DNA of 63,847 nucleotides, counting the filler, from Deltaproteobacteria bacterium (lineage in GTDB: Bacteria > JACQOV01): NCBI GenBank assembly GCA_016202395.1. It is 4 parts of 4 records of this genome, joined end to end, with 100 filler letters (N's around TTAATTAATTAA, not from the genome) between each part and the next. Parts side by side here need not be neighbours in the genome. Positions count along the whole stretch, not along the records: positions 1 to 29,234 come from JACQOV010000096.1; 3 more parts are not named here. One strand, written 5' to 3'. The notes beneath the pieces were generated by a model. It saw only the letters and a program-made list of their open reading frames with translations, was not told the origin of the DNA and searched no databases. The translations under genes and the position numbers were made by a program. Positions 10,708 through 32,860 of this stretch are shown here, piece by piece (positions within the stretch are counted from its first letter, which is position 1; the number at the start of each line of letters is the position of its first letter).

Positions 10708-10736
10708 ATCATAACAACTGATCTGCAAAGCGTCAA
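10708..10736 (-). promoter_or_regulatory. Sigma70-type promoter of the rpmH operon
   Basis: TTGACG-17 nt-TATGAT on the minus strand just upstream of the rpmH ATG. Confidence 0.7.
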
Positions 10737-11162
10737 GGAACCTTCTGCTTACAGTCTTGCAACACAACAAACACAAGGGTCTCCAAAAAATATCCCCATC
10801 AAAAGCGAGGTGCCACCCACATTCCACGAATTCGAAGTGATTGGAAATCAATAGGGCCAAATGTTTGAACGCGACGAGTAATTTTTTTTCTTAACGTCGT
10901 TAAAAAAACAAAAATATCTCTTGCTCTAGATCTGGTCAACGGCTTCGGAATTCAACGCAAGATATAGCTCCATTCTGAATTTCTACGGAATAGGGAAATG
11001 ATCTTCTTGCATCGCACCTCTAAAATCCGCTACATTGTCTCTAAAGGGGGTGGATTTATGGCTGGAGTTTGTGAGTGTCGAGGATGGTTTTTCCCCTCCC
11101 CCTGTCTTGTGACATTTCTTGGAAAATATTTCATAACAGTTTGAATAAAAATGGCTTTTTGT

Positions 11163-11193
11163 TTGTCCACAGCTGTGGATAGCTTGTGGGTAG
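11163..11193. promoter_or_regulatory. DnaA-box cluster upstream of dnaA (oriC part 1 / autoregulation)
   Basis: TTGTCCACA (11163-71), TGTGGATAG (11174-82), TGTGGGTAG (11185-93): 1-2 mismatches to TTATCCACA. Confidence 0.8.
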
Positions 11194-11217
11194 ATTTGCT
11201 GTTTAAAGGAAACCGTT

Positions 11218-12546: not shown

Positions 12547-12750
12547 TATAAACAGCTCCTGTGGAAGAAGGGTGTGGATGTTTTGTTGAATTTGGGTCAT
12601 TGCAAGAAGCCTGGGGATAGATTAAAAATAGATGCACAAGATGAATAATTTAAAAAACAACGCTTTAGATCTTTTATCCACTAATTCACAGAAACTACTA
12701 CTAATGTATTTCTTATTATATCAACAAGAAGAACATAGAAGGAGGGGATT
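12547..12750. other. oriC (dnaA-dnaN intergenic) with basal unwinding element
   Basis: Degenerate DnaA boxes; tandem TTATCCACT/TAATTCACA (12674-12690), then CTA-CTA-CTA trios (12695-12703) and an AT-rich tract. Confidence 0.8.
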
Positions 12751-13869
12751 ATGGAATGTATTTTTAATAAAGGGACGCTAATCCAAGGGCTCCAATTAAC
12801 TCAAAATATTGCGGACAAAAAGAATACCATGCCTATTTTGGGCAATGTAATGATAAAATCACACAAGGAGGAGGTAGAGATCTTCGCAACGAACTTAGAA
12901 GTGAGTATTCGAACTAGGATTCCAGCTCAAATTCAACAAGAAGGGGTTCTTTCTCTACAAGCCCAAAAAACTTATGAGGTGGTTCGTGAACTTCCTGGTA
13001 GTGAGGTTCATTTAAAAGGAAAGGAGAATTTTTGGGGAGAGATTGAGTCTGGGAAAAGTTTTTTTACTTTAGCGGGATTAGATCCAAAGGACTTTCCTAA
13101 GTTGGAGGTTGAACAAAGCGATATCCTTTTTCAAATAGAGGCCTCTTCTCTAAAACATCTTATTGATAAAACAACCTATGCCACCTCTACCGATGAGGCG
13201 CGTTATCACTTAAATGGGGTCTTTGTGGAGTTGGATTACAGTAAGAAAAAAGGGATGATTAAAGGGGTGGCCACCGATGGGCATCGGTTGGCTTTGGTGG
13301 AGGAGGAGATTGCTTCTGAGGGGCCTTTGCATCTAGAGAAAGGGGTTCTGTTGCCTCGAAAGGGGTTAATGGAGGTAAAAAAGGCCTTTACCGAAAGTGA
13401 GGGGAAAATAGAGGTTGGGATTTCTAAGAAGATGGTTTTCTTGCGTCGCGATGGGATGTCGATCTCGATGCGTTTGATTAGCGGGGAGTTTCCTGATTAT
13501 CGGCAGGTGATTCCTAAAGGTGGAAACCGATTTTTAGTGCTTAAAAAAGAGCCTTTAATCGGGGCCTTAAGGAGAATCTTACTCCTCTCTTCCGACCGCT
13601 ACCGAGGGGTTCGCCTTAATCTTACGAAACAGGAGGCCATTCTTTCTCTCCATAACCCCGATATTGGGGAGGCTCGGGAGAATTTACCGGCAGAATATAC
13701 CGGAGATCCTTTGGAAATGGGGTTTAACACCCGTTATCTTTTAGAGGCGGTCTTGGCTTGTGACGAAGAGAATGTCCAGTTCGATTTTAAGGACGAGTTA
13801 AGCCCCGTTTTAGTACAAGGGCCCGAGCATAAAAAATCACTCGCTGTCATTATGCCCATGCGGTTCTAA
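12751..13869 (+). CDS. dnaN: DNA polymerase III beta clamp
   Basis: ATDGHRL, RLISGEFPDY, GFNTRYL, C-terminal VIMPMR. Confidence 0.98.
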   Translation: MECIFNKGTLIQGLQLTQNIADKKNTMPILGNVMIKSHKEEVEIFATNLEVSIRTRIPAQIQQEGVLSLQAQKTYEVVRELPGSEVHLKGKENFWGEIESGKSFFTLAGLDPKDFPKLEVEQSDILFQIEASSLKHLIDKTTYATSTDEARYHLNGVFVELDYSKKKGMIKGVATDGHRLALVEEEIASEGPLHLEKGVLLPRKGLMEVKKAFTESEGKIEVGISKKMVFLRRDGMSISMRLISGEFPDYRQVIPKGGNRFLVLKKEPLIGALRRILLLSSDRYRGVRLNLTKQEAILSLHNPDIGEARENLPAEYTGDPLEMGFNTRYLLEAVLACDEENVQFDFKDELSPVLVQGPEHKKSLAVIMPMRF

Positions 13870-13881: not shown

Positions 13882-18629
<4,748 letters not shown>

Positions 18630-18686
18630 AAACCCAGGTCCTTTCTACCACGCACGCTTCCCAAAAGCAACCGATTTTATGCACTG

Positions 18687-18803
18687 TCATCTAAGAATTA
18701 AATTTGAAGTTGTCATTATGGGGGCTCCAAAAGTGGCCACAATCGTTATGGCGACTGTCCCCAGAATTCCGGCAAGAACTGCTTTTTTACTATTAATCTT
18801 CAT
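18687..18803 (-). pseudogene. Truncated small membrane-protein gene (38 aa)
   Basis: Strong RBS (GAGGAG) before MKINSKKAVLAGILGTVAITIVATFGAPIM, one TM helix, then an abrupt stop; resembles the N-terminus of a longer membrane protein. Confidence 0.4.
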
Positions 18804-18932
18804 AACTCCTCTTTTCCTTTGTTTTTTTGCCTCTACTTGTGTATGATGCTGCGGTAGGGTGCGTAACAAAATGATCTCCTATTGCAGATTCGCCCTATCC
18901 GTTGATAAGAATAAGGGTGGCATCTTTCATCT

Positions 18933-21692
18933 ATGCCTACCACTCTAAAAAAAATCGCCCAATCGCTTTTTGAGGTTCGGCGCGAAGATTGGGGAAAGAC
19001 GTTATGGATGTTCTCCTATATCTTCCTTCTTATCGCGGCCTACGTCATGCTCAAGTCGGTGCGGGACTCGCTTTTTCTGTATGAGCTCGGCCCCGAGAAA
19101 TTGCCTTATGTTTATATCCTAATTGCGCTGATGGCCGGTTCCATTGCGACCGTTTTCTCTCGCCTATTGGCGACAGCAAAAATCCACCGATTGATCTTCG
19201 GAACGAGTCTGTTCCTCATTTCTAACCTGTTCGTTTTCTGGTGGCTACTTCGGTTCGAAGGCGCGTGGCTATTCTACTCGCTCTATGTGTGGGTCAGCAT
19301 CTTTGGCATTATCACGACCTCTCAATTTTGGTTACTTGCCAATCATCTGTTTAATCCACGAGAGGCCAAAAGAACTTTTGGCATCATCGGAACCGGAGCC
19401 ACCCTGGGAGGGATCGTTGGAGGGTTCTTAACAAAAACCTTCGTTGAGATAGCCGGAACGACAAATCTTCTTCTCATCGGTGTTGGATTGTTCGCGGCTA
19501 CACTGGGGTTGCTGTTACCGATCTGGCGTTTGGCGGCAAAAGACTCTACTCAAGCAACACCTCGTTCGGTAGAGAGAGATCATCAAGGGACTCCAGGGTT
19601 GATTTCTTCAATTGTTCAATCGAAATACTTAATACTCATAGTCGCCCTTGTAGGACTGACCGCCTTCATTTCCAATCTGATTGACTTCGAATTCAAATCG
19701 GTTGTTTCGAATTCTCTTAAGTCTAAAGATCAAATCACCGCATTTTTTGGTGTCTTCTTTGGCTGGCTCGGTATTGCGTCGGTGATTGTCCAGTTTTTCT
19801 TTACAGGAAAGATTTTAAAGATTTTGGGGACGACATCGGCAATCCTGTTTCTACCCCTTGCTCTTTTCTTCGGCTCGTTCCTCCTTGCGTTATTCCCGCT
19901 CATCTGGGCGGCCTCTTTCTTAAAAGGAAGCGATGGAAGCCTTCGGTACTCCCTCCATAAATCGGGTACAGAGCTTCTGATTCTTCCGATCCCGCTGGCT
20001 CTAAAAAAACGGACCAAGATTTTCGTCGATATGTTTGTTGATCGCTTCGCCGATGGATTGAGTGGAGTGCTCCTGCTTCTGCTGGTCTCAGCCTTTGCGC
20101 TCACTGTGCAACAGATTAGTTTCATCTTACTGCCCATTATCGGAATCTGGATCTGTCTCAGTTTCATCATAAGAAAACAGTACGTTGGCACTCTTCGAGA
20201 AGCGATCCGAAAGAAACAGATCGATACGAAAGCCCTTCACTTCAAAATCTCCGATCAAGCCGCGATCGAATGTATCCTCGACACACTCAATCACCCTGAC
20301 GAATCTCACGTGCTTTATGGGCTGGAGTTTCTCGAGTCGGTGCAGCTTTCGATTGTGCCGCTGAATCTGAGAAAACTTCTCAAACATCCCTCCGAAGAGA
20401 TTCGAGTCCACGCGATGCGGCTGCTCATTGCTTCTAAAGATCAAACCCTTTTGCCAGAGATTGAAGGGATGCTTCAAGACGAAAGCAGTGTCGTCAAAAC
20501 AGAGGCTCTTCAAGGGATCCATGCCTTAAAAAAAGAAGGGGCGATCGATCTCATGAAGTCTTACTTAAAAGATCCCGACCCCAAGATGAAGGTAGCGGCG
20601 ATTGCTTGCATCGCCCAATGCGGCAGGGAAAGTGAGAAAGAGATCGCTCGAAATGAATGGAAGCAGATGGTGTCGAACCCGGAAGATCATCCTGCTCGTC
20701 AGGAAGCCGCAAAAGTGATTGGCCACATTACCGATTGTTCTTTTCACAAGCTGCTTCTGGATCTGTTCAATGAAACCGATAAAAAGGTATTGCTCTTTGC
20801 GATCGATAGTGCGGGTCGTACCGGCTGTAAGATATTTGTAAAATCACTCCTACCGTTCCTTAAAGTGCGACCGTTGCGAAAACAGGCACAAGAAGCTTTG
20901 GCATCGTGCGCGCGAACCATTCCAGGAACCCTCCATGATGCGATACAAGATCAAAACCTCGATCGTGAAATACGACAACGGATCCCTCAGATTCTTGCCC
21001 TGAATCCCTCTCAGTGGACAATCGATCTATTGTTGCACAGTTTATCCCAGAAAGACCGACATCTCTCGTTTATGATCTTGAAGGCTCTCAACAGAATCCG
21101 GATGTCGAACCTCTCTTTTCGATTCGATCCAGACAAAGTAAAATCGCGTATCTGCCAAGAAACTCATCACTACTTTGCATTACTGAATACGAAACGCTCT
21201 CTCTTATCCTCACCCACAGCGCTCGATAAAGCCGATCCCCTAATCCAGGCTTTAAATGATCACACCGTTTGGTCTGTCGAAAGAATCTTCCGTTTACTTC
21301 GACTGATTTATCCAGACGAAGGAATTTTTCATGCCTATCTCCAAATTGTTAGCAACAGCGCTTGGAATCGTGCCACCGCCTTGGAGTATCTCGAAAACAT
21401 TTTAGACAAAAAGATACGAACGGAAATACTCCACGTTGTCGATGACATCCCCGAAAATGAGAAATTGCAAAAAGCGGCGTCTATCTATAGAATCGAAGGA
21501 AAATCCTTTGATGATTCTGTGAAAGAGCTGATTTTTTCTGAAGATTCACACCTTTCAGCTCTCGCTATTTATGGAATAGGGAAGACTTTGCCAGAGGGTT
21601 TTTTGTCCGAAGCAGAAAATTTAGTAAACAGTCCTGATCTGCTTGTTCGAGAAACGGCTGTTCACGTAACGAACCGATTAAGAGGGAGCTGA
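18933..21692 (+). CDS. Npt1/Npt2 (TLC/NTT) nucleotide-translocase-like MFS domain fused to HEAT repeats
   Basis: YVMLKSVRDSLFL, SQFWLLANHLFNPREAKRTFGII..GATLGGI, K.FVD.FVDR..D; helical HEAT-like repeats over the C-terminal ~500 aa. Confidence 0.88.
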   Translation: MPTTLKKIAQSLFEVRREDWGKTLWMFSYIFLLIAAYVMLKSVRDSLFLYELGPEKLPYVYILIALMAGSIATVFSRLLATAKIHRLIFGTSLFLISNLFVFWWLLRFEGAWLFYSLYVWVSIFGIITTSQFWLLANHLFNPREAKRTFGIIGTGATLGGIVGGFLTKTFVEIAGTTNLLLIGVGLFAATLGLLLPIWRLAAKDSTQATPRSVERDHQGTPGLISSIVQSKYLILIVALVGLTAFISNLIDFEFKSVVSNSLKSKDQITAFFGVFFGWLGIASVIVQFFFTGKILKILGTTSAILFLPLALFFGSFLLALFPLIWAASFLKGSDGSLRYSLHKSGTELLILPIPLALKKRTKIFVDMFVDRFADGLSGVLLLLLVSAFALTVQQISFILLPIIGIWICLSFIIRKQYVGTLREAIRKKQIDTKALHFKISDQAAIECILDTLNHPDESHVLYGLEFLESVQLSIVPLNLRKLLKHPSEEIRVHAMRLLIASKDQTLLPEIEGMLQDESSVVKTEALQGIHALKKEGAIDLMKSYLKDPDPKMKVAAIACIAQCGRESEKEIARNEWKQMVSNPEDHPARQEAAKVIGHITDCSFHKLLLDLFNETDKKVLLFAIDSAGRTGCKIFVKSLLPFLKVRPLRKQAQEALASCARTIPGTLHDAIQDQNLDREIRQRIPQILALNPSQWTIDLLLHSLSQKDRHLSFMILKALNRIRMSNLSFRFDPDKVKSRICQETHHYFALLNTKRSLLSSPTALDKADPLIQALNDHTVWSVERIFRLLRLIYPDEGIFHAYLQIVSNSAWNRATALEYLENILDKKIRTEILHVVDDIPENEKLQKAASIYRIEGKSFDDSVKELIFSEDSHLSALAIYGIGKTLPEGFLSEAENLVNSPDLLVRETAVHVTNRLRGS

Positions 21693-21695
21693 CCG

Positions 21696-22118
21696 ATGCT
21701 AACAACCATGGAAAAAGTTTTCTTCCTGAAAGAGATCGAGATGTTCAAAAACGTCAAAATCTCAGAATTGACCCACATCGCTGAAATCATGCAAGAGGTC
21801 CATTTCAATAAGAACGAAACGATCTTTAAAGAAGAAGAGGTTGGAGATGCGATGTATTTCGTTGTTCAAGGAAAGGTACAGATCTTGAAAGAGGAAAAAC
21901 CGGTCGCCAGTATTATGAACAACGGAACATTTGGCGATTTTGCCATCCTCGACAACGCGCCTCGCTATTTTACGGCAACCGCGTTCACGGAAACCGATGC
22001 CCTTAAAATTGACGCCAGCGACTTCTTCTATCTGGTGGAGGATCATATTGAGATTGCCTTCGGAATCTTCAAGGTTTTGACACGACGGATTATGACAAAA
22101 AATATCTATGAGAAGTAA
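21696..22118 (+). CDS. Stand-alone cyclic nucleotide-binding domain protein
   Basis: EKVFFLK, IFKEEEVGDAMYFVVQGKV, FGDFAILDNAPR..TA; no HTH. Confidence 0.9.
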   Translation: MLTTMEKVFFLKEIEMFKNVKISELTHIAEIMQEVHFNKNETIFKEEEVGDAMYFVVQGKVQILKEEKPVASIMNNGTFGDFAILDNAPRYFTATAFTETDALKIDASDFFYLVEDHIEIAFGIFKVLTRRIMTKNIYEK

Positions 22119-23382
22119 GTGGAAAGTTGCCATTGCGATCCTGTGCTCCTTTGTAACGGCTATTTCTCCTTCGTACGCGAACGATGAAGAGGAAGAAAAA
22201 GTAGGCAAAAAGGCCACCGTTTGGGATGTTCTTGCCTTCCCCCGAAAGCTATTTGAACTCTCCTTTTATCCCGCCAAGAAGCTTGTGATTTTCTCCGAGC
22301 GTGTCGATCTACCCACTCGGATCACCGATTTCTTCTATAATGACGAAAGGACCGCGGCGTTCCTGCCCAACTTCTCCTTCGACGGAGAGTATGGAACCGG
22401 CGGTGGCCTCAGTGTTTTTCACAAAGATCTTTTTCGCCGCGGAAAGCAAGTGAACGCGTCATTTCTGATCGTCAGCGATGAAGATCGAGTGGTGGCATTC
22501 CTTTACGAAGACCCCTCGATTCTGCAAGGCCCTTTTCATTACGGAATGCGATTCCTCTTTGCCGAAGACAGCGATGAAGATTTCTTTGTCCGGCGTGAAG
22601 GGAGCCAATGGATTACAGGGAATAAAACACGCGAAGACGACGAAACCAGTTTTGAGCTCGATCGGATCGAACCGGGGTTTTTCTTAGGAATTTTTCCCTC
22701 CGAAACGATCCGAACCGATCTTTTTTTGACGGCATCGTTCGTTAAAGTCGAGGGAGGAACCGGCGAGGGTGGGCCGATCCCCACAGAGATCGATGGAGTC
22801 GGCGATGACAGCGATATTTTGGGAGAAGGGGTTCAACTGATATGGGATCGACGCAATAGTCCTTTTCGACCGACTCAAGGGACCTATTTGAACCTCAAAG
22901 GAGGAATTTTTGAGGGATTCCATGGAAAAACATCGAGTGGAAAAGACTACGGTTACACGCAATATCAGATCGATCTGCAGCAATTTATTCCTCTTTTCGC
23001 CCCACTTCGAACGCTGGCGATTCGAGGCTATTTAGAAAAGCTCGATCGGCTGAATGATGAAGCGATTCCATTCTATAAATTCCCAATCCTTGATAAAAAC
23101 CACGCTCTTAGAGGATTCGATCGAAGACGATTCGCTGACGAAGGAGCGCTTCTTTTTAATGTTGAATACCGCTACCCCGTTTGGGACACCTGGGAAGGAG
23201 TCATTTTTCTAGACGAAGGGCAGGTTTTTAAGAATTATCGTGACATCACATTGGGTGCATTTCATTACTCCGCCGGCACAGGAGTGAGAATCACAACTAA
23301 AGACAGGTTTCTTTTTAATTTGCAAACTGGATTCGGTGATGAAGGAGCCGAGTTTTTGTTACAGCTTGAACAGGAATTTTAA
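22108..23382 (+). CDS. Omp85 (BamA/TamA-family) outer-membrane beta-barrel, POTRA-less
   Basis: Signal peptide; WDRRNSPFRPTQG, LRGF..RRF, NVEYRYP, FLDEGQVF, SAGTGVR, C-terminal F. Confidence 0.85.
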   Translation: MRSKWKVAIAILCSFVTAISPSYANDEEEEKVGKKATVWDVLAFPRKLFELSFYPAKKLVIFSERVDLPTRITDFFYNDERTAAFLPNFSFDGEYGTGGGLSVFHKDLFRRGKQVNASFLIVSDEDRVVAFLYEDPSILQGPFHYGMRFLFAEDSDEDFFVRREGSQWITGNKTREDDETSFELDRIEPGFFLGIFPSETIRTDLFLTASFVKVEGGTGEGGPIPTEIDGVGDDSDILGEGVQLIWDRRNSPFRPTQGTYLNLKGGIFEGFHGKTSSGKDYGYTQYQIDLQQFIPLFAPLRTLAIRGYLEKLDRLNDEAIPFYKFPILDKNHALRGFDRRRFADEGALLFNVEYRYPVWDTWEGVIFLDEGQVFKNYRDITLGAFHYSAGTGVRITTKDRFLFNLQTGFGDEGAEFLLQLEQEF

Positions 23383-23383
23383 C

Positions 23384-24976
23384 ATGGAAACCAAAGCAAT
23401 CATCGTTGCCATTCTTCTCTGCTTCCTGGTGCAAGCCCCACTCGTCCGGGGTGAACAACCCGAGCCGGATGACGAAGGCGATTACCTCTGGTGGGATGGC
23501 GGTTATAACATGCTCGTTCGCCCTGTCGGAAAGCTGTTTGATCTGGGCAGACCCATCAAGACCGTAGGCCGATGGCTGCGCTTGAGAGGACGGGATGAAG
23601 CCCTGAACGTGAATGCGCTCGATGAGGTGGAAGATTCCAGCTGGTTTACGAATCGGCATGAAAAATACCGAATGTCGTTAAAAGAACTTCAACGAGGCGC
23701 AAATAGCGACTCCACAATCGACACACAAAACGTTTTGGAGATCGTTGCGGGCAAGTCGCTCGGAATCACACCGGGACTCATTGTTAAAGATTCCAAGGGA
23801 GATCGTTACCTCTTAAAGTTTGATCCACCCGACTATCCTGGAATGGCGACTTCCGCGGAGATGGTCTCCTCCAGGTTTATGCACGCGGCGGGATACCCTA
23901 TCCCTGAATACGCGATTGCGACCATCGATCCCACGAGGCTCACAATTAAAGAAGGGGCAAAAATAAAAGGGAGATACAACGTGCCCCGCCCAATGGTTCA
24001 GAGCGACGTCGAGGATATCCTTAAGCGAGTCTACGTTCGTAAAGATGGGAAAATACGAGCCTCGGCAAGCAAGTTTTTGGATGGAATTCCCATGGGATCT
24101 CCGACTCTTGTGGGAGTCCGCAAAGACGATCCGGACGATACAATCCCTCATCAACATTTGAGAGAATTGAGGGGCTTAAGAATTGTTTCGTCGTTTCTTA
24201 ATAACACCGACTGCCGTCGTGGAAATTACCTTGATATGTACGTGAACGAAGGGGAACAGTGGCACATCAAGCATTACATTCTCGATCTTTCCTCCACGGT
24301 CGGCTCCGGCAATACCGAGCCGAAATCGGCCAAATACGGAAACGAATATGTTGTGGATCCACCCAAAATCTCTCTTTCCTACATCACGCTTGGGTTCTGG
24401 ATCAAGCCTTGGGAAAATGGGATCGAGGTGCGCTATCCTGAAACAGGAACGTTCGAATCCGAAATATTCCATCCGAAGCGTTGGGTTACTTCGTATCCGA
24501 ATGCGGGTTTTGTAGAGATGACACCCCGAGATGCGTTCTGGGGAGCCAAGATCGTGACGGCATTTACCGATAACGACATCCGAGCGATCGTCGAAACGGG
24601 TCAGTTTTCTAATCCGGAAGCGGAAGAATACGTTGTAAAAACATTTATTGAAAGAAGAGATAAGATTGGGCGCTATTGGTTTGACACCCAACGGATGAAC
24701 CCCTTGAGCGAGTTTCGAGTGATCCAACAAAAAGGGTCTTCGATGCTTCAATTTAATGACATCGCTATCGATCGAGACATTGCCACATCGATGGAAACTC
24801 GTTACCGCTATCAAATCGACAAAGAATCCAAAGTGGTAACGGTAGGACGGTCGATCCCGATCGGATCCGGTGATCCTGAGATCCGAATCTGGACGAGCCG
24901 TGATTCGGGAGAGCATTGGGGGAAAAAGATGACAATACGGATAGAAAACGGCTCTGTTGTATCCATCGAACGATAG
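23384..24976 (+). CDS. Exported hypothetical protein with atypical kinase-like motifs
   Basis: Signal peptide (METKAIIVAILLCFLVQAPLVRG); Gly loop GKSLGITP, YLLKFD, AE helix, NNTDCRRGN, YILD. Start at ATG 23384. Confidence 0.6.
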   Translation: METKAIIVAILLCFLVQAPLVRGEQPEPDDEGDYLWWDGGYNMLVRPVGKLFDLGRPIKTVGRWLRLRGRDEALNVNALDEVEDSSWFTNRHEKYRMSLKELQRGANSDSTIDTQNVLEIVAGKSLGITPGLIVKDSKGDRYLLKFDPPDYPGMATSAEMVSSRFMHAAGYPIPEYAIATIDPTRLTIKEGAKIKGRYNVPRPMVQSDVEDILKRVYVRKDGKIRASASKFLDGIPMGSPTLVGVRKDDPDDTIPHQHLRELRGLRIVSSFLNNTDCRRGNYLDMYVNEGEQWHIKHYILDLSSTVGSGNTEPKSAKYGNEYVVDPPKISLSYITLGFWIKPWENGIEVRYPETGTFESEIFHPKRWVTSYPNAGFVEMTPRDAFWGAKIVTAFTDNDIRAIVETGQFSNPEAEEYVVKTFIERRDKIGRYWFDTQRMNPLSEFRVIQQKGSSMLQFNDIAIDRDIATSMETRYRYQIDKESKVVTVGRSIPIGSGDPEIRIWTSRDSGEHWGKKMTIRIENGSVVSIER

Positions 24977-25024
24977 AAAACCATGCCTTTTTAACTATGG
25001 GTGGGGAGAGCATCACTTAGAAAC

Positions 25025-25168
25025 TGATTCTGCTGAAAAACCCTCGTTTGTCATCGCGAGGAGGCCGAAGGCCGACGTGGCGATCCCATGAAATCAAAGG
25101 GTTACGAGGAGATTGTTTCGCCCCTTTGAGGCTCGCAATGACAAAAAAGGACTTTTTCAGCAGAATCA
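25025..25168. repeat. MITE-like element with 16-bp terminal inverted repeats and internal REP-like palindrome
   Basis: TGATTCTGCTGAAAAA ... TTTTTCAGCAGAATCA; internal GTCATCGCGAG...CTCGCAATGAC and GGCCGAAGGCC hairpin. Confidence 0.8.
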
Positions 25169-25173
25169 AAAAC

Positions 25174-25428
25174 TTAAAACTGACCCCAAATCTTCAACAT
25201 TCGGATGATTTTGACAATCTTTTCCTTTTCGAGAACCTGATAAACCAAGCGGTGTTGGATGTTAATTCTTCGGGAATAGGCTCCCGCCAAGTCCCCAACC
25301 AGTTTTTCATAAGGGGGAGGATTTTGAAAAGGATTTTCTTTCAAAATCTCCATCAGCTTTTCGGTTTTAGGTTTTAGGCCAGATTGAGAGATTTTCTTCG
25401 CATCTTTTAAGGCTGGCTTCGTATAGAT
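25174..25428 (-). pseudogene. yoeB: Txe/YoeB-family toxin pseudogene (absent from ORF track)
   Basis: Hand translation IYTKPALKDAKKISQSGLKPKTEKLMEILKENPFQNPPPYEKLVGDLAGAYSRRINIQHRLVYQVLEKEKIVKIIRM; no start codon before the upstream in-frame TAA; no antitoxin. Confidence 0.85.
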
Positions 25429-25501
25429 CCGCTTACTGACATTTTCACGTTGCTGTTACACTGACATTTTCATGAGGCGATCACACCGGAGGCATTGTCT
25501 C

Positions 25502-25531
25502 TTGACAAACATAGAGCCAGCAGAATAGATT
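25502..25531 (+). promoter_or_regulatory. Putative sigma70 promoter of the btu operon
   Basis: TTGACA-18 nt-TAGATT directly upstream of the riboswitch. Confidence 0.55.
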
Positions 25532-25544
25532 GATGGCGGAAAAG

Positions 25545-25715
25545 AACGATTCAGGCGGTAGAGGACCTTAATAGGGAATGGGGTGAGAGTCCCCAACGGT
25601 CCCGCCACTGTGATGAGGTTGCGCTCGCAAGCGCACTCTTTCTCCGATCCACTGGCTTTCTTCATCGGAGCTGGGAAGGGGAGAACGAGGAGCCTCTAAG
25701 TCAGGAGACCTACCT
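25545..25715 (+). ncRNA. Cobalamin riboswitch
   Basis: AATAGGGAATGGGGTGAGAGTCCCCAACGGTCCCGCCACTGT, CCACTGG...CTGGGAAGG, B12 box AAGTCAGGAGACCT; upstream of a TonB receptor. Confidence 0.95.
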
Positions 25716-25765
25716 GGATCTTTGGATGCTAATAAAACGCCTCTTCGAAGGAAAGGGGGTCTGTA

Positions 25766-27781
25766 GTGGGTCTTTTTTTATGCCCTTTCCTCTTTTTTGG
25801 GAGGAAAGGGTTTTTTATTTATATCTTCTGCTTTTGGCTCCATCAGGGGATGGCCGCGGATTTGGGGGAGATTCGGCGCGATGTGGAGGAGCGGCCTGTG
25901 GAAAAGGCGGCTGAAGAGAATGCCGGTTTTGTTACCGTCATTGAGGTCGAGGAGGCCACCGAGCGAGTCGAGACGGTTCCAGACCTTCTCGCGGAATCGG
26001 TGGGGGTCCAAATCCATCGCACGAGCGCCTTTGGAGGGTTTAGCACGCTGTCCATCCGAGGCTCGGCGAGCAATCAAGTTGCAATCTATCTGGATGGAGT
26101 GCTTCTGAATCCCTCCCACATCGGTATTGTGAATCTGACCGCTTTGCCTTTAGAGAGTTTGGATCGCATTGAGGTTTATCGAGGGTTTAGCCCTGTTTAT
26201 TTGGGGAGCTCTGCGATTGGAGGAGTGGTGAATCTGGTTACGCGAGAACCGAAACCTGGCGATCTTTCCAATGGGTTGGCCAACGGGTTGGCCAACCAGT
26301 TGGGACTGACGTACGGCTCCTTTGAAACGCTGGAGGTCAACGCGGTTCGCTCCAAAGCCAATCTCGCCTGGCAATATCTCGTAGGCGCTCATCACACTCA
26401 GAGCCAAGGGGATTTTTCTTTTCTTGATGACAACGGCACCCTCTTTACCACCGAGGATGATCAGGAAGTCATGCGGGACAACAACGACTTTGGGGATTGG
26501 GGGATCACTTTGAAGGGGGGATACGATATCGCGCGGGAGAGGAAAATGACGATTCTGAACGACACCTTTTATCGCGATGAAGGGGTTCCTGGGAATGGCT
26601 TTGGGGGATCCTTTGAATCCACGCGCCTGCGAACCTTTCGAAATATCACTCATCTCCTTTGGGAAGAGAGAGGGCTGGGGGATACTCCTCTCGATCTGAA
26701 AGGGGGGGCTTACTATCTTTTTTATAACGAGCGATTTCTGGATCGAGAGGGGGAGATCGCTTTTGTTCCCCAAGAGACCGACAACCGGATCCAATCGATC
26801 GGTGGCAACCTGTTATTTCACTCTCCTATCGGTGAACATCAGGAGGGTTATCTTTTTCTCGAGTTTCGACAGGAGGCATTTAAACCTTTTGACGAGTTTG
26901 CCACGCCACAAGCAGGGCCGGAGAGCTCGCGCCATAGCGGGGTCGTGGCCGCCCAAGAGGATCTCTATCTCTTTCGGGATCGGCTCACCCTTTCGCCCGC
27001 GATCCGTTATGAACCACTCCGGAGCGATTTTGACTCGGCGGATTCCAAAACAGAGGATTTTATCATCCCTTATATTGGCGCGAAGTTTCGTTGGATAGAG
27101 GGGTTGGATCTTCGCGGAAACATCGGCCGTTATTTCCGAGTCCCGACTTTTATTGAGCTCTTTGGCAACTCCGGCGCCATCTTAGGGAACGATCAACTTC
27201 GCCCTGAAGAAGGGATCAATCGAGATGTCGGTTTCCGTTGGGATCGCCCCTGGGGCCCTTTTGATTCTTTTGCGTTTGAATACGCCTATTTCGAAAACGA
27301 CATTGAGGATCTCATCGCTTTTATCCAAAACTCTCAGCAGACTTTGATTGCGATTAACATCGGTTCCGCCGATCTTCAGGGGCACGAATTGTCGCTTCTT
27401 TGGGGCCTTTGGAATTTATTCAAATTTTCATTGAATTATACCCGTCAAGAGGCCGTCAATACGAGCTCCTCTTTTTTGAGTGGCAATCGTTTGCCAGGGC
27501 GCGCACAGGATGAATTCTATTTTCACGCGGAGGCAAAGTTTCGATACGTGAAGCCGTTCTATGAATTCAATTTTATTGGATCGAATTATTTAGACGAGGG
27601 CAATTTGGTTTTGTTAAAGCGCCGATTCATTCACAATATGGGGATTACTTTTTATCCCAAAATTCGTGAGCTCTCTATGACGGCAGAGGTAAAAAATGTG
27701 AACGATGAACAGATTGCAGATGTTTTAGGGTTTCCACTGCCCGGGAGAAGTTACTACGGAACGGCACAGTATAAATTTTAA
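25766..27781 (+). CDS. TonB-dependent receptor, BtuB-like (corrinoid uptake)
   Basis: Plug motifs SIRGS..NQV.IYLDGV and DRIEVYRG; FRVPTFIELFG, GN..LRPE, PLPGRSYY...F; riboswitch upstream; start uncertain. Confidence 0.9.
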   Translation: MGLFLCPFLFFGRKGFFIYIFCFWLHQGMAADLGEIRRDVEERPVEKAAEENAGFVTVIEVEEATERVETVPDLLAESVGVQIHRTSAFGGFSTLSIRGSASNQVAIYLDGVLLNPSHIGIVNLTALPLESLDRIEVYRGFSPVYLGSSAIGGVVNLVTREPKPGDLSNGLANGLANQLGLTYGSFETLEVNAVRSKANLAWQYLVGAHHTQSQGDFSFLDDNGTLFTTEDDQEVMRDNNDFGDWGITLKGGYDIARERKMTILNDTFYRDEGVPGNGFGGSFESTRLRTFRNITHLLWEERGLGDTPLDLKGGAYYLFYNERFLDREGEIAFVPQETDNRIQSIGGNLLFHSPIGEHQEGYLFLEFRQEAFKPFDEFATPQAGPESSRHSGVVAAQEDLYLFRDRLTLSPAIRYEPLRSDFDSADSKTEDFIIPYIGAKFRWIEGLDLRGNIGRYFRVPTFIELFGNSGAILGNDQLRPEEGINRDVGFRWDRPWGPFDSFAFEYAYFENDIEDLIAFIQNSQQTLIAINIGSADLQGHELSLLWGLWNLFKFSLNYTRQEAVNTSSSFLSGNRLPGRAQDEFYFHAEAKFRYVKPFYEFNFIGSNYLDEGNLVLLKRRFIHNMGITFYPKIRELSMTAEVKNVNDEQIADVLGFPLPGRSYYGTAQYKF

Positions 27782-29334: not shown

Positions 29335-29916
29335 AGTGGAGCAATGGGAGAAGGATGGTCGGACTGGTTTGCAGCGAGCCTTTATGACGATCCTATCATT
29401 GGAGAGTACGTCTCGGGAAATAGCTCCAAAGGAATTCGAAGATACGCTTTGGATCGGAATCCTTTGACGTATGGGGATTTATGCCAGGGTCCCAACGGAT
29501 GTGAAGTGCATGATGATGGGGAGATCTGGTCTGGGATTCTGTGGGATCTACGAGAAAAATTCATTGAGAAGTACGATTATGAGGAAGGGAAAGCTCAAGT
29601 GGAGCAATTGGTGATCGATGGGATGAAATTTACCCTTATCAATCCCTCCATGCTTGATGGGAGGGATGCAATTTTAGCGGCAGATGTGGCCGATGGAGGA
29701 GAGAGTCAGGATTTGATATGGAAAGCTTTTGCCTGTAAAGGAATGGGAGTTTCCGCTTCTACGCTGGATCATAATGATTCCAGTCCACAGGAGGCTTTTG
29801 ATCTTCCTGACGGTACGGATTGTCGAGGCCGAGTGGAATTGCCATGGATCGACGAGCTACGAGAGATCTTCGGTTCTATTTTCCGGGATATTATAAAAAT
29901 AATTCGTCCGGTTTAA
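29335..29916 (+). CDS. M36 (fungalysin) metallopeptidase, 3' fragment
   Basis: GAMGEGWSDWFA, GIRRY, NPLTY, EVHDDGEIWS..LW, P.MLDGRDAIL.AD, IWKAFA..GMG. Confidence 0.85.
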   Translation, partial: SGAMGEGWSDWFAASLYDDPIIGEYVSGNSSKGIRRYALDRNPLTYGDLCQGPNGCEVHDDGEIWSGILWDLREKFIEKYDYEEGKAQVEQLVIDGMKFTLINPSMLDGRDAILAADVADGGESQDLIWKAFACKGMGVSASTLDHNDSSPQEAFDLPDGTDCRGRVELPWIDELREIFGSIFRDIIKIIRPV

Positions 29917-30413: not shown

Positions 30414-30442
30414 TTGAAATGGTGTTTTGGAGGGTTCACAAT
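30414..30442 (+). promoter_or_regulatory. Putative sigma70 promoter of the structural operon
   Basis: TTGAAA-17 nt-CACAAT, followed by AAGGAG RBS and ATG 30458. Confidence 0.5.
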
Positions 30443-30457
30443 GAGGAAAGGAGAGAG

Positions 30458-32461
30458 ATGAGAACCGTTCGCACCGAGCCTTTTTATCGGATAGCCGAGA
30501 TTGTGCCGGAGACCTTTGATGAGAAGAGCCGCACCTTTGAGGTGGTCTTTTCAACCGGGGCCCGAGTTTTGAGAAAGCCCTTTTTTGAGGAGCCTTTTAT
30601 TGAAGAGTTGAGCCTCGATCCTGAGCATGTCCGACTGGAGAGGTTAAACAACGGGGCTGCATTTCTCGATAGTCATGGGGAGAGAAAAAGGGGACTCTCT
30701 GACGTCTTAGGCAAGGTGGTTCGAGGGACCGCCAAGGTTGACGGTCAGAAAGGGATGGCCCAGATTCGGCTCTCCAAAAGGGCCGAGGTGGAACCGATTG
30801 CTCAGGACATTCTCGATGGGATTATTTCCAAAGTGAGCATGGGGTATCAGATTTACAAGCTGGAAGAGGTAGGCCGGCAAGGGGAATTAAAGACATTTCG
30901 AGCGATCGATTGGGAGCCGTTTGAGATTTCAGCCGTTCCGGTGGCGGCCGATGATGGGGCCGAGATTCGGGCTCCTGTCCCTGATCATAACCGACCCGAA
31001 TATGACTGTGTGTTGTATGAGGCGAGTCGTTCTCAGACTCTATCTGAAATAGAGAAGAAAGAAGAGGAGGAAAGAATGGAAGGAGTTTCAGGGGTTGATC
31101 TTCATAAAGAGAGTTCAAGGCAGGATCCCGAGCCCCAGAAAGAGGAGATGAAGGTCGATGAGAAGAGGGATGAGAAAAAGGATTTGGCTGTTTCAGAAAG
31201 AAATCGAGCCCTAGAGATATTGCGTAGTGTTCGAGCCGCCCAGTTATCCGATACCTTTGCCGAGGAGTGGATCCAATCCAATTTAACGCTGGATCAGGTG
31301 AGAGCCAAAGTGATCGACAGACTCGCTTTAGCTTCTGAAGAAGCTCCGACGCGGAGTCTTCGGGTGGAAGTGGGAGACGGCCCTCCCGATCATCTCCTTC
31401 GAGGAGCTGAGAACGCGCTGCTGCATCGATTTGACTCGGCTCGATATCCTCTGGAGGAGGAGGGGCGCCCCTATCGACATCGGAGGCTTTTGGATTTAGC
31501 CCAAGAATTTCTCCAGGTCTCTGGAGTTCGGACCCGTGGGATGAGTGCGAGCGAGATTGCGAGCCTGGCCTTAAAGAAGAGAGGGGGGATGCATACCACG
31601 AGCGACTTCCCGTTTCTCCTAGAAAACATCGCCAACAAAACCTTAAGAGATGCCTATGAAGAGGCCCCTCAAACGTTTGAGTCTTTTATTCGACGAGTGC
31701 CTGTCTCCGACTTTAAAGAGATCTCTCGGGTCTCTCTCGGGGATGCTCCGTCTTTAGAGAAAGTCAATGAAAAAGGGGAGATCCGATATGGGAGCCTCAG
31801 TGAAGCCGCAGAGAAGTATCATATTGAGACCTTTGCTAAAATTATCTCCATCACTCGGAAAACCATCGTGAATGACGATCTGGATGCCTTTACTCGGATC
31901 CCGTTTCTCTATGGGATTGCGGGGAGGGATTTGGAATCGGACCTCGTTTGGGACTTGATTACGAGTAATTCCCTGATGGGAGATGGGAAACCCTTGTTTC
32001 ATAGCAGTCACAAGAACTTAATCAGTCCGGGGACTCCTTTGGAGGTGGACTCTTTAGGAGCGGCGAGGAAGCTTTTGCGCCTTCAGACAGGGCTCGATGG
32101 GAGGAAGCTCAATTTGACTCCTTTCGCGGTGATGGTTCCGACCGAATTAGAGACCTTAGCCCAGAAGTTTTTGGTACAGACCACGGTTCCGACAAAATCG
32201 GAGGATGCCAATCCCTTTGAGGGGAGATTACAGGTGATTGCCGAGCCTCGGCTGGATGATCACTCCACCCAGGCTTGGTATGTGATTGCGAGTATTCGGC
32301 AGATTGACATTGTGGAGCTGGCGACTTTGGATGGGCAGAGGGGCCCCAAGCTCGAGAATGAGAGTGATTTTGATATTGAGGGGATTAAAATCAAGGCGGT
32401 CTATGACCTGGGGGCGAAGGTCATTGATTATCGGGGACTGGTCAAAAACGAGGGGGCCTAA
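30458..32461 (+). CDS. Prohead protease-major capsid protein fusion (HK97 fold, Mu gpT-like C-terminus)
   Basis: Protease motifs FLDSH, KVSMGY, WEPFEISAVPVAAD; scaffold-like charged linker; MCP motifs HTTSDFP.LL, VSDFK, VNDDLDAF, D.G...IDYRGL.KN.GA. Confidence 0.92.
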   Translation: MRTVRTEPFYRIAEIVPETFDEKSRTFEVVFSTGARVLRKPFFEEPFIEELSLDPEHVRLERLNNGAAFLDSHGERKRGLSDVLGKVVRGTAKVDGQKGMAQIRLSKRAEVEPIAQDILDGIISKVSMGYQIYKLEEVGRQGELKTFRAIDWEPFEISAVPVAADDGAEIRAPVPDHNRPEYDCVLYEASRSQTLSEIEKKEEEERMEGVSGVDLHKESSRQDPEPQKEEMKVDEKRDEKKDLAVSERNRALEILRSVRAAQLSDTFAEEWIQSNLTLDQVRAKVIDRLALASEEAPTRSLRVEVGDGPPDHLLRGAENALLHRFDSARYPLEEEGRPYRHRRLLDLAQEFLQVSGVRTRGMSASEIASLALKKRGGMHTTSDFPFLLENIANKTLRDAYEEAPQTFESFIRRVPVSDFKEISRVSLGDAPSLEKVNEKGEIRYGSLSEAAEKYHIETFAKIISITRKTIVNDDLDAFTRIPFLYGIAGRDLESDLVWDLITSNSLMGDGKPLFHSSHKNLISPGTPLEVDSLGAARKLLRLQTGLDGRKLNLTPFAVMVPTELETLAQKFLVQTTVPTKSEDANPFEGRLQVIAEPRLDDHSTQAWYVIASIRQIDIVELATLDGQRGPKLENESDFDIEGIKIKAVYDLGAKVIDYRGLVKNEGA

Positions 32462-32505
32462 GCCTTTCGGCCCCTGTTGAGGATACAAAAGAAGAGGAGA
32501 TTCAA

Positions 32506-32841
32506 ATGTCTAAGAGTTTTGTTCAAACAGGAGAAGTACTCGATTACGTGAACGTCACGGGGAGGGACCTAACCTCGGGAGAGGTGATCGTCGTAGGTTC
32601 TCGGATTGCGGTCGCGGCGGTGGATATTCCAAAAGACTCGGAAGGCTCGGCCGATCTGGTGGGGGTGTTTCGGTTAGCCAAGGAGGTCGCAGCCACGTTC
32701 AATCAAGGGGACAAACTTTTCTGGGATCCCGTGAATAATTATCTCACGAAGAACTCGGCCGGGAATATTCCTGCAGGGATGGTTTTTAAGGAGGCCCCCT
32801 CTGGAGAGGCGGAAGCCCTTTGTCGTTTAGAGTCCAGTTAA
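32506..32841 (+). CDS. DUF2190-family capsid cement/decoration protein
   Basis: FVQ.G..L, SG.V..VG, GVF.L.K, G.KL.WD; directly after MCP. Confidence 0.85.
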   Translation: MSKSFVQTGEVLDYVNVTGRDLTSGEVIVVGSRIAVAAVDIPKDSEGSADLVGVFRLAKEVAATFNQGDKLFWDPVNNYLTKNSAGNIPAGMVFKEAPSGEAEALCRLESS

Positions 32842-32860
32842 AGTTTAGGGGAGAGAGGGG

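Follow-up and report, generated by a model that had tools for sequence, protein, structure and literature searches.

A four-gene cluster joining an NTT-HEAT carrier and a cNMP-binding-fold protein to a POTRA-less Omp85 barrel and a predicted exported kinase-like protein

Introduction

Carriers with HEAT repeats fused C-terminally to an NTT domain, and with a cNBD adjacent or fused to them, have already been described by Major, Embley & Williams (2017, Genome Biol Evol, PMC5381601), and no function is given in the accessible part of that paper. According to the same text, NTT-HEAT proteins are found in cyanobacteria, chlamydiae and oomycetes, a substrate is known for no member of the clade, all characterised NTTs serve uptake, and the family also includes carriers of NAD and other nucleotides. 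The periplasm is stated to contain no ATP in the accessible part of a review (PMC7391070), and since it is held to be ATP-free, envelope processes have been explained through inner-membrane coupling.

Here, we analysed a gene cluster in a deltaproteobacterial window, i.e., the whole stretch of DNA under study (63,847 nt). Its first two genes, g1 and g2, have the architecture of the NTT-HEAT clade, with a PF00027 gene a few nucleotides downstream of the carrier. The cluster also encodes an Omp85 barrel (g3) and a predicted exported kinase-like protein (g4, here called KinL); neither these nor phosphatases are mentioned as neighbours in the accessible part of Major et al. (PMC5381601). No paper linking the NTT-HEAT/cNBD pair to a barrel-kinase pair was found. 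The first-pass annotation, which knew of no characterised system of this composition, needs correcting in one respect, as the NTT-HEAT/cNBD half was described in 2017.

Results

The cluster consists of four co-directional ORFs (Table 1). They had been described as tightly coupled, and our ORF calls reproduce all three spacings, i.e., a gap of 3 nt between g1 and g2, an overlap of 11 nt between g2 and g3, and a gap of 1 nt between g3 and g4. An alternative GTG start of g4 at 23336 adds 16 residues before the signal peptide. The families named for the first three genes were recovered as Pfam matches to TLC, HEAT_2, cNMP_binding, and Omp85, with none to POTRA. The grouping of g1 to g4 exceeds chance, because the same families gather round g4 relatives in other phyla, the very co-occurrence that the first-pass annotation had proposed as a test, while each of the six genes bordering the cluster in the window was seen in 0 or 1 of 79 related loci.

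Table 1. Coordinates of the cluster and its parts within the window
Feature	Nucleotides	Strand	Residues	Description
Cluster	18933-24976	+		four ORFs
g1	18933-21692	+	919 aa	inner-membrane NTT/TLC carrier with HEAT domain
g1, carrier	18933-20222	+	1 to ~430	NTT/TLC domain
g1, HEAT	20223-21689	+	~490 aa	C-terminal HEAT domain
g2	21696-22118	+	140 aa	stand-alone cNMP-binding-fold (CRP/PKG-type cNBD) protein, signal peptide absent
g3	22108-23382	+	424 aa	POTRA-less Omp85 outer-membrane barrel
g3, N-terminus			1-24	signal peptide
g3, helices	22219-22335	+	38-76	periplasmic helices
g3, barrel	22354-23373	+	83-422	barrel
g4 (KinL)	23384-24976	+	530 aa from ATG	exported atypical kinase-like protein (predicted)
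KinL, N-terminus			1-23	signal peptide
KinL, helices			34-64	N-terminal helices
KinL, core	23633-24715	+	~84-444	kinase core
KinL, C-terminus	24683-24973	+	434-530	FN3/Ig-like beta-sandwich, after kinase core

The single g1 ORF belongs to the TLC carrier family (PF03219, 63.4 bits, cut-off 21, 2.4e-17; matches within residues 101-317), with further matches to MFS_1 (5.7e-11) and HEAT_2 (70.8 bits, 1.2e-19; residues 479-559). Both features of the NTT-HEAT clade are present, as HEAT repeats (PF13646/PF02985) are fused C-terminal to the NTT domain and the PF00027 gene g2 begins 3 nt past the g1 stop. In a phmmer comparison, residues 111-430 matched the solved NTT carriers 9j3n (E 1e-9) and 9j3j (E 4e-9), and g1 remained below the cut-off of the NTP/NDP exchanger model TIGR00769 (48.7 bits versus 387.2). 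By a crude count, the protein has ~11-12 hydrophobic segments and a K/R-rich N-terminus; its HEAT domain is probably on the cytoplasmic side.

The canonical cNMP phosphate-binding cassette reads G-E ... R-[ST]-A. The g2 protein has the cNBD fold (PF00027, 64.2 bits, cut-off 27.5, 1.1e-17) and its profile matches are cNBD structures of PKG, PKA, and CRP. In an ungapped alignment of the cassettes of 10 g2-family members to those of PKG, the Gly and the Arg were kept, but the residues that follow them differ from the canonical ones: D (g2 of the window) or T, V, or S (other members) stands in place of the Glu, and Y (g2 of the window) or V, L, or A (other members) in place of the Ser/Thr. The cyclic-nucleotide sensor of the first-pass annotation is therefore a putative one. 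[quoted passage not shown] 2017 (PMC5381601), and through such fusions the two parts are physically linked.

The g3 protein is a member of the Omp85 superfamily (PF01103, 56.7 bits, cut-off 24, 3.8e-15) with an LRGF motif in its long loop. Its AF2 model (pLDDT 86.1, pTM 0.80) gave the BamA and TamA barrels as best Foldseek matches (E 1e-11), and its scores against the BamA and TamA NCBIfam models were far below the cut-offs. No POTRA family match was found in Pfam, and ahead of the barrel, the model shows the helices listed in Table 1 and no beta-alpha-alpha-beta-beta unit. By both Pfam and the AF2 model, g3 lacks the POTRA of the BamA, TamA, TpsB, and type Vd subfamilies.

For g4, there were no matches in Pfam (up to E 0.1) or NCBIfam, and profile membership in Fam20 (PF06702), CotH (PF08757), or HipA_C (PF07804) was not found with Pfam; Atlas feature scores were 0.79-0.81, which are leads only. 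One KinL homologue (P0047) has a precomputed PF07804 match. The kinase-like character claimed for this protein is borne out by structure and not by sequence. In VIA-align comparisons of its AF2 model (pLDDT 85.8, pTM 0.88), a bilobal kinase fold extends over the core, with the closest match being CtkA (Z 15.2, rmsd 4.4, 236 aligned), followed by Fam20 (13.8; Fam20C/A Z 13-14), PI4KII (12.9), CotH (12.6), a bacterial Ser/Thr kinase (12.0), and the HipA/HipT kinases (Z 10-12), and the C-terminal domain matched FN3 domains (Z ~8.5).

Four KinL residues, K145, D276, N281, and D301, are invariant in both alignments (A1, 27 sequences; A3, 32 sequences), a Glu occupies the E159 position in 23/27 and 27/32, respectively, and the family consensus at D301 is D-F-G. 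From their positions in the model, we take K145, E159, D276, N281, and D301 to be the catalytic Lys, helix-C Glu, catalytic Asp, Asn, and DFG-type Asp, so that the modelled active site appears intact and kinase-type. KinL is predicted to be exported by a Sec signal, and many relatives carry a putative lipoprotein signal; by a crude rule, the N-termini of 229 full-length relatives were lipobox-like (103), otherwise hydrophobic (112), or neither (14). Both the export signal and the fold claimed in the first-pass annotation, the latter posed there as a test, are thus present along with conserved catalytic residues. The family comprises ~2,000-2,600 sequence clusters.

Kinase folds also perform other reactions, and the Foldseek matches include the glutamylase SidJ. 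KinL could thus instead carry out AMPylation or glutamylation or act as a scaffold, or the carrier substrate could be a different nucleotide, a cofactor, or some anionic metabolite rather than ATP. The NAD and other nucleotide carriers of the NTT family (accessible part of Major et al. 2017, PMC5381601) and clusters with as many as two or three TLC paralogues, suggesting more than one substrate, speak for this. The Lys/Glu/Asp/Asn/DFG-Asp pattern, however, is the canonical phosphotransfer set, and the top structural matches are true kinases, which makes such other chemistry unlikely.

We surveyed 79 KinL-related loci, which represent at least 14 phylum-level groups. In 71 of them, the gene immediately upstream of KinL, in the same orientation, encodes an Omp85; where 1300 nt or more of upstream sequence are available, the count is 67 of 73. 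A natural fusion (P0270, 981 aa) contains KinL at 8-567 followed by Omp85 at 597-976. The modelling of barrel and kinase together, which had been suggested as a check, gave a score of 0.63 for KinL with g3 and 0.01 for the best of three controls; the mark for such scores is reached by 58/80 solved complexes and 2/110 mismatched pairs and is rough here, our own alignments having been used. The runs share at least 85% of contacts, with a partner pLDDT of at least 81, and KinL contacts the periplasmic turns and the N-terminal helices of the barrel, i.e., its periplasmic face. The POTRA-less Omp85 is thus the conserved partner of KinL, with predicted binding at these turns and helices.

The earlier proposal was that the kinase is associated with the Omp85 or secreted through it. 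The first part is supported by the adjacency, the fusion, and the complex model, whereas secretion appears less likely than docking, since the modelled contacts are periplasmic. In a secretion pair of two-partner or type V-like kind, the Omp85 would export KinL to the surface or medium, KinL would work outside the cell, and the link to the carrier would be indirect. This agrees with the order of the P0270 fusion (passenger, then barrel), with Metallophos-Omp85 fusions nearby, and with the nearest folds (CtkA, CotH, and Fam20) being extracytoplasmic kinases. POTRA domains are a feature of known Omp85 secretion systems, but g3 has none; moreover, a folded KinL is modelled against the periplasmic turns, and secretion gives no reason for the linkage to TLC carriers. 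We therefore consider secretion improbable.

A TLC gene is located within 8 kb of KinL in 38/79 loci, against a chance expectation of less than 1%, and in 20 of the 37 loci with full 8-kb flanks (ten whole genomes of 3.3-9.5 Mb hold ~1-3 TLC genes each). Gene order differs among phyla while the TLC-KinL association is retained, and all four families occur together in 12/79 loci. In 151 Acidobacteriota genomes, TLC was found in 24/29 KinL-positive and 31/122 KinL-negative genomes (Fisher p 1.6e-8, a statistic that ignores shared ancestry and MAG incompleteness). One or more NTT/TLC carriers are thus linked genomically and phyletically to the barrel-kinase pair, far above chance. The pair can exist without an adjacent carrier, as no TLC was found within 8 kb in 41/79 loci or anywhere in 5/29 KinL-positive Acidobacteriota genomes, and in two complete genomes the sole TLC is ~770 kb from KinL (G004) or a weak match (G005).

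Exported PAP2 or metallophosphatase (Metallophos) genes occur in 24/79 loci, and Metallophos-Omp85 fusions are found in the same neighbourhoods (L015:14448-17342). Cultured hosts of the module include Fodinibius roseus DSM 21986 (L007) and Aliifodinibius salipaludis (L009).

With the direction reversed, the carrier would import periplasmic nucleotides or organophosphate, like the NTTs of parasites, and the barrel, a nucleotide-binding KinL, and the phosphatases would capture nucleotides or phospho-compounds from outside and process them. Such scavenging fits the uptake role of all characterised NTTs (accessible part of Major et al. 2017, PMC5381601), the PAP2/Metallophos genes, which are typical scavenging hydrolases, and a TonB-dependent receptor gene downstream of the cluster in the window. 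Yet the receptor is found with the module in 1/79 loci, and scavenging needs no kinase, while the full catalytic set is invariant in KinL. Omp85 barrels are not known to serve as solute channels. Overall, only a small share of the probability falls to this explanation.

That the carrier-cNBD and barrel-kinase pairs are functionally unlinked two-gene units often lying side by side is favoured by the 41 TLC-free loci and by NTT-HEAT proteins in clades outside the KinL survey (accessible part of Major et al. 2017, PMC5381601), which indicate that the carrier is not specific to the KinL module, but is very improbable given an adjacency ~60-fold over chance expectation, an association that survives gene-order change from one phylum to another, and a phyletic co-occurrence that agrees with both.

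Discussion

In the reading we prefer, g1 to g4 make up a single operon-like unit for an envelope-spanning module. The NTT/TLC carrier would feed nucleotide to the periplasm, most simply ATP exchanged for ADP as in class I NTTs. With this nucleotide, KinL, docked on the barrel at the periplasmic side of the outer membrane, would phosphorylate some component of the envelope, whether protein, lipid, or glycan. Carrier activity would be tuned in response to a small ligand, not necessarily cAMP, by the HEAT arm in the cytoplasm together with the cNBD-fold protein. Exported PAP2/metallophosphatase lipoproteins, encoded in the clusters of other genomes, would undo the modification or recycle phosphate. 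Overall, we give this tentative reading, mechanism included, a probability of roughly 45%; against it stand the below-cut-off TIGR00769 score of g1, the loci that have no TLC near KinL, and the loss of free ATP that would occur via porins. The interpretation in the first-pass annotation is thus partly supported. A bolder version, that many diderms deliberately energise the periplasm with an ATP/ADP carrier under HEAT/cNBD control, a lipoprotein-type kinase bolted under a POTRA-less Omp85 barrel, and phosphatases closing the cycle, is possible but rather doubtful; it would make the module a prokaryotic equivalent of the secretory-pathway kinases that eukaryotes feed with ATP.

The combination of four families recurs over many bacterial phyla and hints at ATP-driven periplasmic chemistry. 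If the preferred reading is true, no dedicated system for ATP-dependent chemistry in the periplasm would have preceded this one. The NTT-HEAT carriers, widespread but uncharacterised, would gain a function, KinL and its relatives would count as a new kinase family, and a POTRA-less Omp85 would have a role other than assembly.

Each part of the module resembles known systems. The ATP/ADP translocases of chlamydiae, rickettsiae, and plastids (9j3n, 9j3j) share the TLC family with g1 (phmmer E ~1e-9), although g1 is only a distant relative (48.7 versus the TIGR00769 cut-off of 387). As the host is free-living, its carrier would have to run ATP outward, unlike those NTTs. With BamA/TamA, type Vd, and two-partner secretion barrels, g3 shares the Omp85 barrel and the (L)RGF loop motif. 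An enzyme paired with or fused to the barrel, a feature of enzyme-bearing type Vd and two-partner systems, also occurs here (P0270, Metallophos-Omp85). The g3 protein differs in having a helical N-terminal segment in place of POTRA and a partner predicted to be folded on its periplasmic face.

The HipA/HipT toxin kinases match the KinL fold, and the homologue P0047 has a PF07804 match, but these kinases are cytoplasmic toxins with antitoxins, whereas KinL is predicted to be exported, lacks a HipA Pfam match of its own, and has no antitoxin-like gene beside it. H. pylori CtkA (3akk) and Bacillus CotH (5jd9) are among the best structural matches of KinL and act outside the cytoplasm; they are 13-16% identical to it and lack the Omp85 partner, the carrier, and the FN3-like C-terminal domain. 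Fam20C, the Golgi casein kinase (4kqa, 5yh2), also matches in fold, and it differs in that KinL has no PF06702 match, is predicted to be anchored at an outer-membrane barrel, and is accompanied by a carrier of an unrelated family. Eukaryotic secretory-pathway kinases are served by a lumenal ATP importer, and by analogy, the module may follow the logic of Fam20C, in which the kinase works in a compartment that makes no ATP itself and is supplied by a dedicated nucleotide carrier.

Gene cluster and its surroundings

The four closely spaced genes described in the first-pass annotation were recovered as plus-strand ORFs of the window with the same spacing, namely a 3-nt gap between g1 and g2, an 11-nt overlap between g2 and g3, and a 1-nt gap between g3 and g4 (KinL). 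The tabulated ATG was taken as the g4 start because it opens a plausible Sec signal (short charged start, 12-residue hydrophobic run and small-residue cleavage site); the alternative start, a GTG at 23336, prefixes 16 extra residues to that signal. Scanning 18500-25900 for promoters and terminators found no excess of sites over shuffled sequence and is uninformative on operon boundaries. Neither a second gene of the TLC carrier family nor a homologue of the phosphatases associated with related loci was found anywhere in the 64-kb window, whose version of the module is minimal.

Features of the window, with positions along the whole stretch
Feature	Positions	Strand	Content
Replication-origin gene set	8325-13869	-/+	yidC (-), then dnaA and dnaN (+)
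gyrB	13888-17634	+	1248 aa, with intein
g1	18933-21692	+	ORF, NTT/TLC-HEAT carrier
g2	21696-22118	+	ORF, cNBD-fold protein
g3	22108-23382	+	ORF, Omp85 barrel
g4 (KinL)	23384-24976	+	ORF from ATG at 23384, kinase-like
190-aa ORF	29344-29916	+	Partial M36 peptidase match
Phage-related block	30419-45000	+	Mu-like prophage or tailocin
Low-GC region	46385-51701	+	Three gene types named in the text

The cluster is found a short way downstream of yidC, dnaA and dnaN, which mark the replication origin, and of the intein-bearing gyrB, approximately 5 kb from dnaN, with a divergent DctP-type binding-protein gene on one side and a TonB-dependent receptor gene on the other. GC content dips to 0.43-0.46 around 10-14 kb, at the origin gene set. 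GyrB owes its length to the intein, which separates the GyrB core from the Toprim domain (Pfam Intein_splicing, residues 475-871) and contains an HNH endonuclease domain (HNH_3, residues 590-612).

Elsewhere in the window, the 190-aa ORF covers no more than positions 213-368 of the profile for fungalysin M36 peptidases and looks like a truncated gene or fragment. The phage-related block encodes a capsid protein (Phage_capsid_4/gpT), tail sheath, tape-measure-like protein, DNA_circ_N, GpP/gp44 baseplate hub and Baseplate_J. The low-GC region (0.40 versus about 0.49 nearby) carries genes for a B12-binding radical SAM enzyme and an MMPL/RND-type transporter and a 456-aa ORF without a Pfam match, and may be an acquired island.

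KinL has a predicted kinase fold

KinL had no match in Pfam or NCBIfam, and searching the PDB with its sequence profile returned chance matches only, at E > 0.3. The family is large and annotated as hypothetical only; 1959 relatives at E <= 0.001 were counted in sequences clustered at 90% identity, and 2601 in representatives at 50% identity. An AF2 model based on alignment A1 (the query and 26 of 120 listed KinL matches) reached pLDDT 85.8 and pTM 0.88, and Foldseek ranked Fam20C/Fam20A and Helicobacter pylori CtkA at the top (E ~1e-4). Over model residues ~84-444, VIA-align gave Z scores of 15.2 for CtkA (rmsd 4.4, 236 aligned), 13.8 for Hydra Fam20, 13.4 for Golgi casein kinase, 12.9 for PI4KII, 12.6 for CotH, 12.0 for a bacterial Ser/Thr kinase, 11.8 for HipT and 10.3 for MavQ. 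Residues 434-522 resembled FN3/Ig-like sandwiches at Z ~8.5, which is near the VIA-align noise level for small domains.

Four residues, K145 (in YLLKFD), D276, N281 and D301, do not vary across the 27 sequences of A1 or the 32 of a second KinL alignment, A3. The helix after K145 carries E159, a Glu in 23/27 and 27/32 of these sequences, respectively, and the family consensus at D301 is D-F-G. We assign the usual kinase roles to these five residues, based on where they lie in the model and on the general organization of kinase active sites. The earlier description of the last protein as kinase-like is thus borne out by the model and by conservation of the catalytic residues: as modelled, KinL combines a kinase fold and a complete set of catalytic residues, and its activity is predicted.

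Judging from its N-termini, the KinL family is exported. Among 229 of 269 collected relatives (those of at least 520 aa and M-starting), a crude rule assigned a lipobox-like motif to 103, another hydrophobic N-terminus to 112 and neither to 14, several of which visibly have a signal-like segment. Seven relatives (P0271-P0277, 959-1151 aa) have a C-terminal extension of ~400 aa; five were scanned and had no Pfam match, and barrel resemblance was seen in 0/7.

KinL is paired with a POTRA-less Omp85 barrel

The g3 product matches the Omp85 barrel (56.7 bits, Pfam), and its nearest structures are the BamA and TamA barrels. In its model (pLDDT 86.1, pTM 0.80), a signal peptide and helices (residues 38-76) precede the barrel and there is no POTRA-type unit, in agreement with the POTRA-less architecture first assigned to it. 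A search for longer g3-type proteins returned one unrelated POTRA protein and is neutral on fusions.

Related loci (n = 79) were obtained from the best 80 stretches of 539 confirmed KinL relatives. They span at least 14 named phylum-level groups, all diderm, including Nitrospirota, Acidobacteriota, Latescibacterota, Gemmatimonadota, Bacteroidota/Balneolales, Zixibacteria, Calditrichota, Ignavibacteria, KSB1, Marinimicrobia and Elusimicrobia. Pairing was scored by tblastn with the window proteins, requiring a same-strand Omp85 match ending at most 700 nt upstream of KinL. Of the 73 loci whose upstream flank is 1300 nt or longer, 67 showed it, as did 71/79 overall. The six exceptions among the 73 were L008, in which a metallophosphatase gene lies between the two, L012 and L037, without an Omp85 match, and L028, L032 and L066, in which the match is farther off. 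One relative, P0270 (981 aa, 4 contigs), is a natural fusion of KinL (8-567) and Omp85 (597-976) with a terminal Phe. KinL is therefore near-obligately paired with a POTRA-less Omp85 and occasionally fused to it. Single Omp85-KinL ORFs in L042, L044, L045 and L062 were rejected as longest-ORF artefacts; none is included in the listed Omp85 HMM matches.

The first-pass annotation had the kinase either associated with the Omp85 or secreted through it. Modelling of Omp85 25-424 with KinL 24-530, using the window protein plus 31 of the 48 locus pairs, placed in the same order in both alignments (A2 for Omp85 and A3 for KinL), gave complex scores of 0.63, 0.61 and 0.63 in three runs versus 0.01 for the best of three controls. 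The 0.63 mark is reached by 58/80 solved complexes and 2/110 mismatched pairs, a calibration that is rough here since the alignments were custom-made. At least 85% of contacts were common to the runs, and partner pLDDT was at least 81. Confident contacts join Omp85 39-71, 298-301, 354-366 and 393 to KinL 34-58, 197-199 and 324-345. When the strands of the barrel model are numbered backwards from its C-terminal end, Omp85 residues 297-300, 358-361 and 397-400 are short periplasmic turns, which would place KinL on the periplasmic face of the barrel. Association is what the complex model supports, without demonstrating binding; that the barrel instead exports KinL to the cell surface we consider unlikely, given this periplasmic placement.

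KinL loci are linked to NTT carriers

All four families, for which a co-occurrence survey had been proposed, were found together in 12/79 neighborhoods of KinL relatives. A cNBD relative was present in 12/79 loci (9/37 with full 8-kb flanks), always accompanying TLC and HEAT. TLC relatives were present in 38/79 loci (20/37 with full flanks) and HEAT relatives in 26/79 (15/37). Ten locus-bearing whole genomes (3.3-9.5 Mb) have ~1-3 TLC genes each, so any given gene has a chance below 1% of having a TLC gene within 8 kb; a TLC gene lay at the KinL locus in 7/10, including both TLC genes of genome G003. In G004 and G005, the sole TLC match is distant or weak. As a control, the flanking genes of the window were sought in the 79 loci: the TonB receptor was found once, and DctP, the 109-aa ORF, the 380-aa ORF, gyrB and dnaN not at all.

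Gene order varies among lineages. The window has TLC-HEAT, cNBD, Omp85, KinL; L007, L009 and L024 have TLC-HEAT, Omp85, KinL; and L015 and L056 have Omp85, KinL, TLC (~445 aa), TLC-HEAT, cNBD. The fullest form among the loci seen is L033 (4878-15625), where genes for a TLC protein (452 aa), a lipoprotein metallophosphatase and a TLC-HEAT protein come after two tandem Omp85-KinL pairs, without large gaps.

Of 151 evenly sampled Acidobacteriota genomes, 29 had strong KinL (E < 1e-100; seven weak-KinL genomes were scored negative) and 55 a TLC match. TLC occurred in 24/29 KinL genomes versus 31/122 others (odds ratio 14, Fisher p 1.6e-8, ignoring shared ancestry and genome incompleteness), or in 23/28 when the unpublished genome G259 (KinL and TLC positive) is left out. 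KinL was found in 3/201 sampled Bacteroidota genomes, too few for a co-occurrence test. By position and phyletic pattern, the link between KinL and NTT carriers is strong yet non-obligate.

Other recurrent neighbors

Neighbor families were derived from all-against-all clustering of 869 called ORFs, with Pfam identity checked on representatives only. PAP2 phosphatases occur in 10 loci, directly upstream of Omp85 in several from Nitrospirota, and metallophosphatases, most of which begin with lipoprotein-type signals, form two groups of 10 and 5 loci. Combined, these phosphatases are found in 24/79 loci, 16 of which also have TLC. Histidine kinases and response regulators, which are commonplace genes, are also frequent (22 loci). 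In Nitrospirota loci L001, L002, L004 and L006, a lipoprotein-like ORF of 290-395 aa lies directly downstream of KinL; the one scanned (L001) had no Pfam match, and the ORF could be a lineage-specific partner or substrate.

Three long proteins (827-964 aa; L015:14448-17342, L021:11843-14557 and L069:15135-17618) cluster with short exported metallophosphatases from L009 and L024. Those of L021 and L069 end in an Omp85 barrel by local HMM, with Pfam just under cut-off, and begin with an N-terminal part without a Pfam match; a KinL-like N-terminus was rejected for both (hhalign probability < 1%). The 964-aa L015 protein, a member of the metallophosphatase cluster, probably also ends in an Omp85 barrel, as it clusters with Omp85-bearing proteins. 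These proteins suggest that POTRA-less Omp85 barrels bearing enzymes form a broader class.

Carrier, cNBD protein and proposed function

The g1 product matches TLC (63.4 bits, cut-off 21), MFS_1 and HEAT_2 (70.8 bits) in Pfam, and residues 111-430 align to the solved NTT carriers 9j3n and 9j3j (E ~1e-9). Its score against the NTP/NDP-exchanger model TIGR00769 (48.7) is far under the cut-off of 387, which marks it as a distant NTT family member. The g2 product is a 140-aa cNMP-binding-fold protein (64.2 bits, Pfam) without a signal peptide. Its family was compared with the canonical phosphate-binding cassette motif, in an ungapped alignment of 10 sequences against PKG cassettes: the Gly is kept and the Arg is kept in 9/10, T, D, V or S replaces the Glu that follows the Gly, and V, Y, L or A replaces the Ser/Thr that follows the Arg. 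The family thus appears atypical, and a cyclic nucleotide is just one candidate ligand.

Our best reading, to which we give a probability of about 45%, is carrier-fed phosphorylation by KinL at the inner face of the outer membrane, with phosphatase reversal and HEAT/cNBD control. The carrier would exchange cytoplasmic ATP for periplasmic ADP by a class I NTT mechanism, in the direction imposed by the gradients of a free-living cell, and obligate antiport would also curb adenylate loss via porins. KinL, lying beneath the outer membrane, would consume the exported ATP; its modification would be undone by PAP2 or metallophosphatases, and the HEAT arm and cNBD-fold protein would control the carrier from the cytoplasm. 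The modified substrate may be a protein, a glycan or a lipid: the nearest folds of KinL include protein kinases (CtkA, Fam20C and CotH), glycan kinases (Fam20, with the hydra entry solved with sugar) and lipid kinases (PI4KII and MavQ) within a Z spread of ~2.5. The first-pass proposal of ATP export feeding an envelope kinase is partly supported, namely in the kinase fold, export signal, barrel pairing and carrier linkage. Against this reading, NTT-HEAT proteins have no known substrate and also occur in clades outside the KinL survey, according to the available text of PMC5381601, and TLC is missing from the vicinity of KinL in about half of the loci and altogether from 5/29 KinL-positive Acidobacteriota genomes.

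The same architecture might serve another chemistry or another transported substrate; given the intact catalytic set, we regard this alternative as unlikely. Scavenging, with inward transport by the carrier, is likewise improbable, as it would have no need of a kinase with invariant catalytic residues. That the two gene pairs are functionally unlinked would suit the lack of a nearby TLC in about half of the loci, and is very hard to reconcile with the positional and phyletic association.

Comparison with known systems

ATP-fed phosphorylation by KinL would take place in a compartment that, according to a review (PMC7391070), contains no ATP. ATP-dependent enzymes in the periplasm are not without precedent, since a preprint abstract presents Lig E as a periplasm-targeted ATP-dependent ligase.

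The statement that no characterized system has this composition holds in part. In the literature searched, to the extent that full text was available, no paper ties NTT-HEAT carriers to Omp85 or to an exported kinase, and the barrel-kinase half and its carrier link are undescribed there. The carrier-cNBD half, in contrast, is an architecture already known, though uncharacterized. NTT-HEAT fusions form a monophyletic, widely distributed bacterial clade in which a cNBD gene is sometimes fused or located a few nucleotides downstream, with the function given as unknown and cAMP-tuned ATP uptake put forward as a suggestion (available text of Major, Embley and Williams 2017, PMC5381601). [quoted passage not shown]
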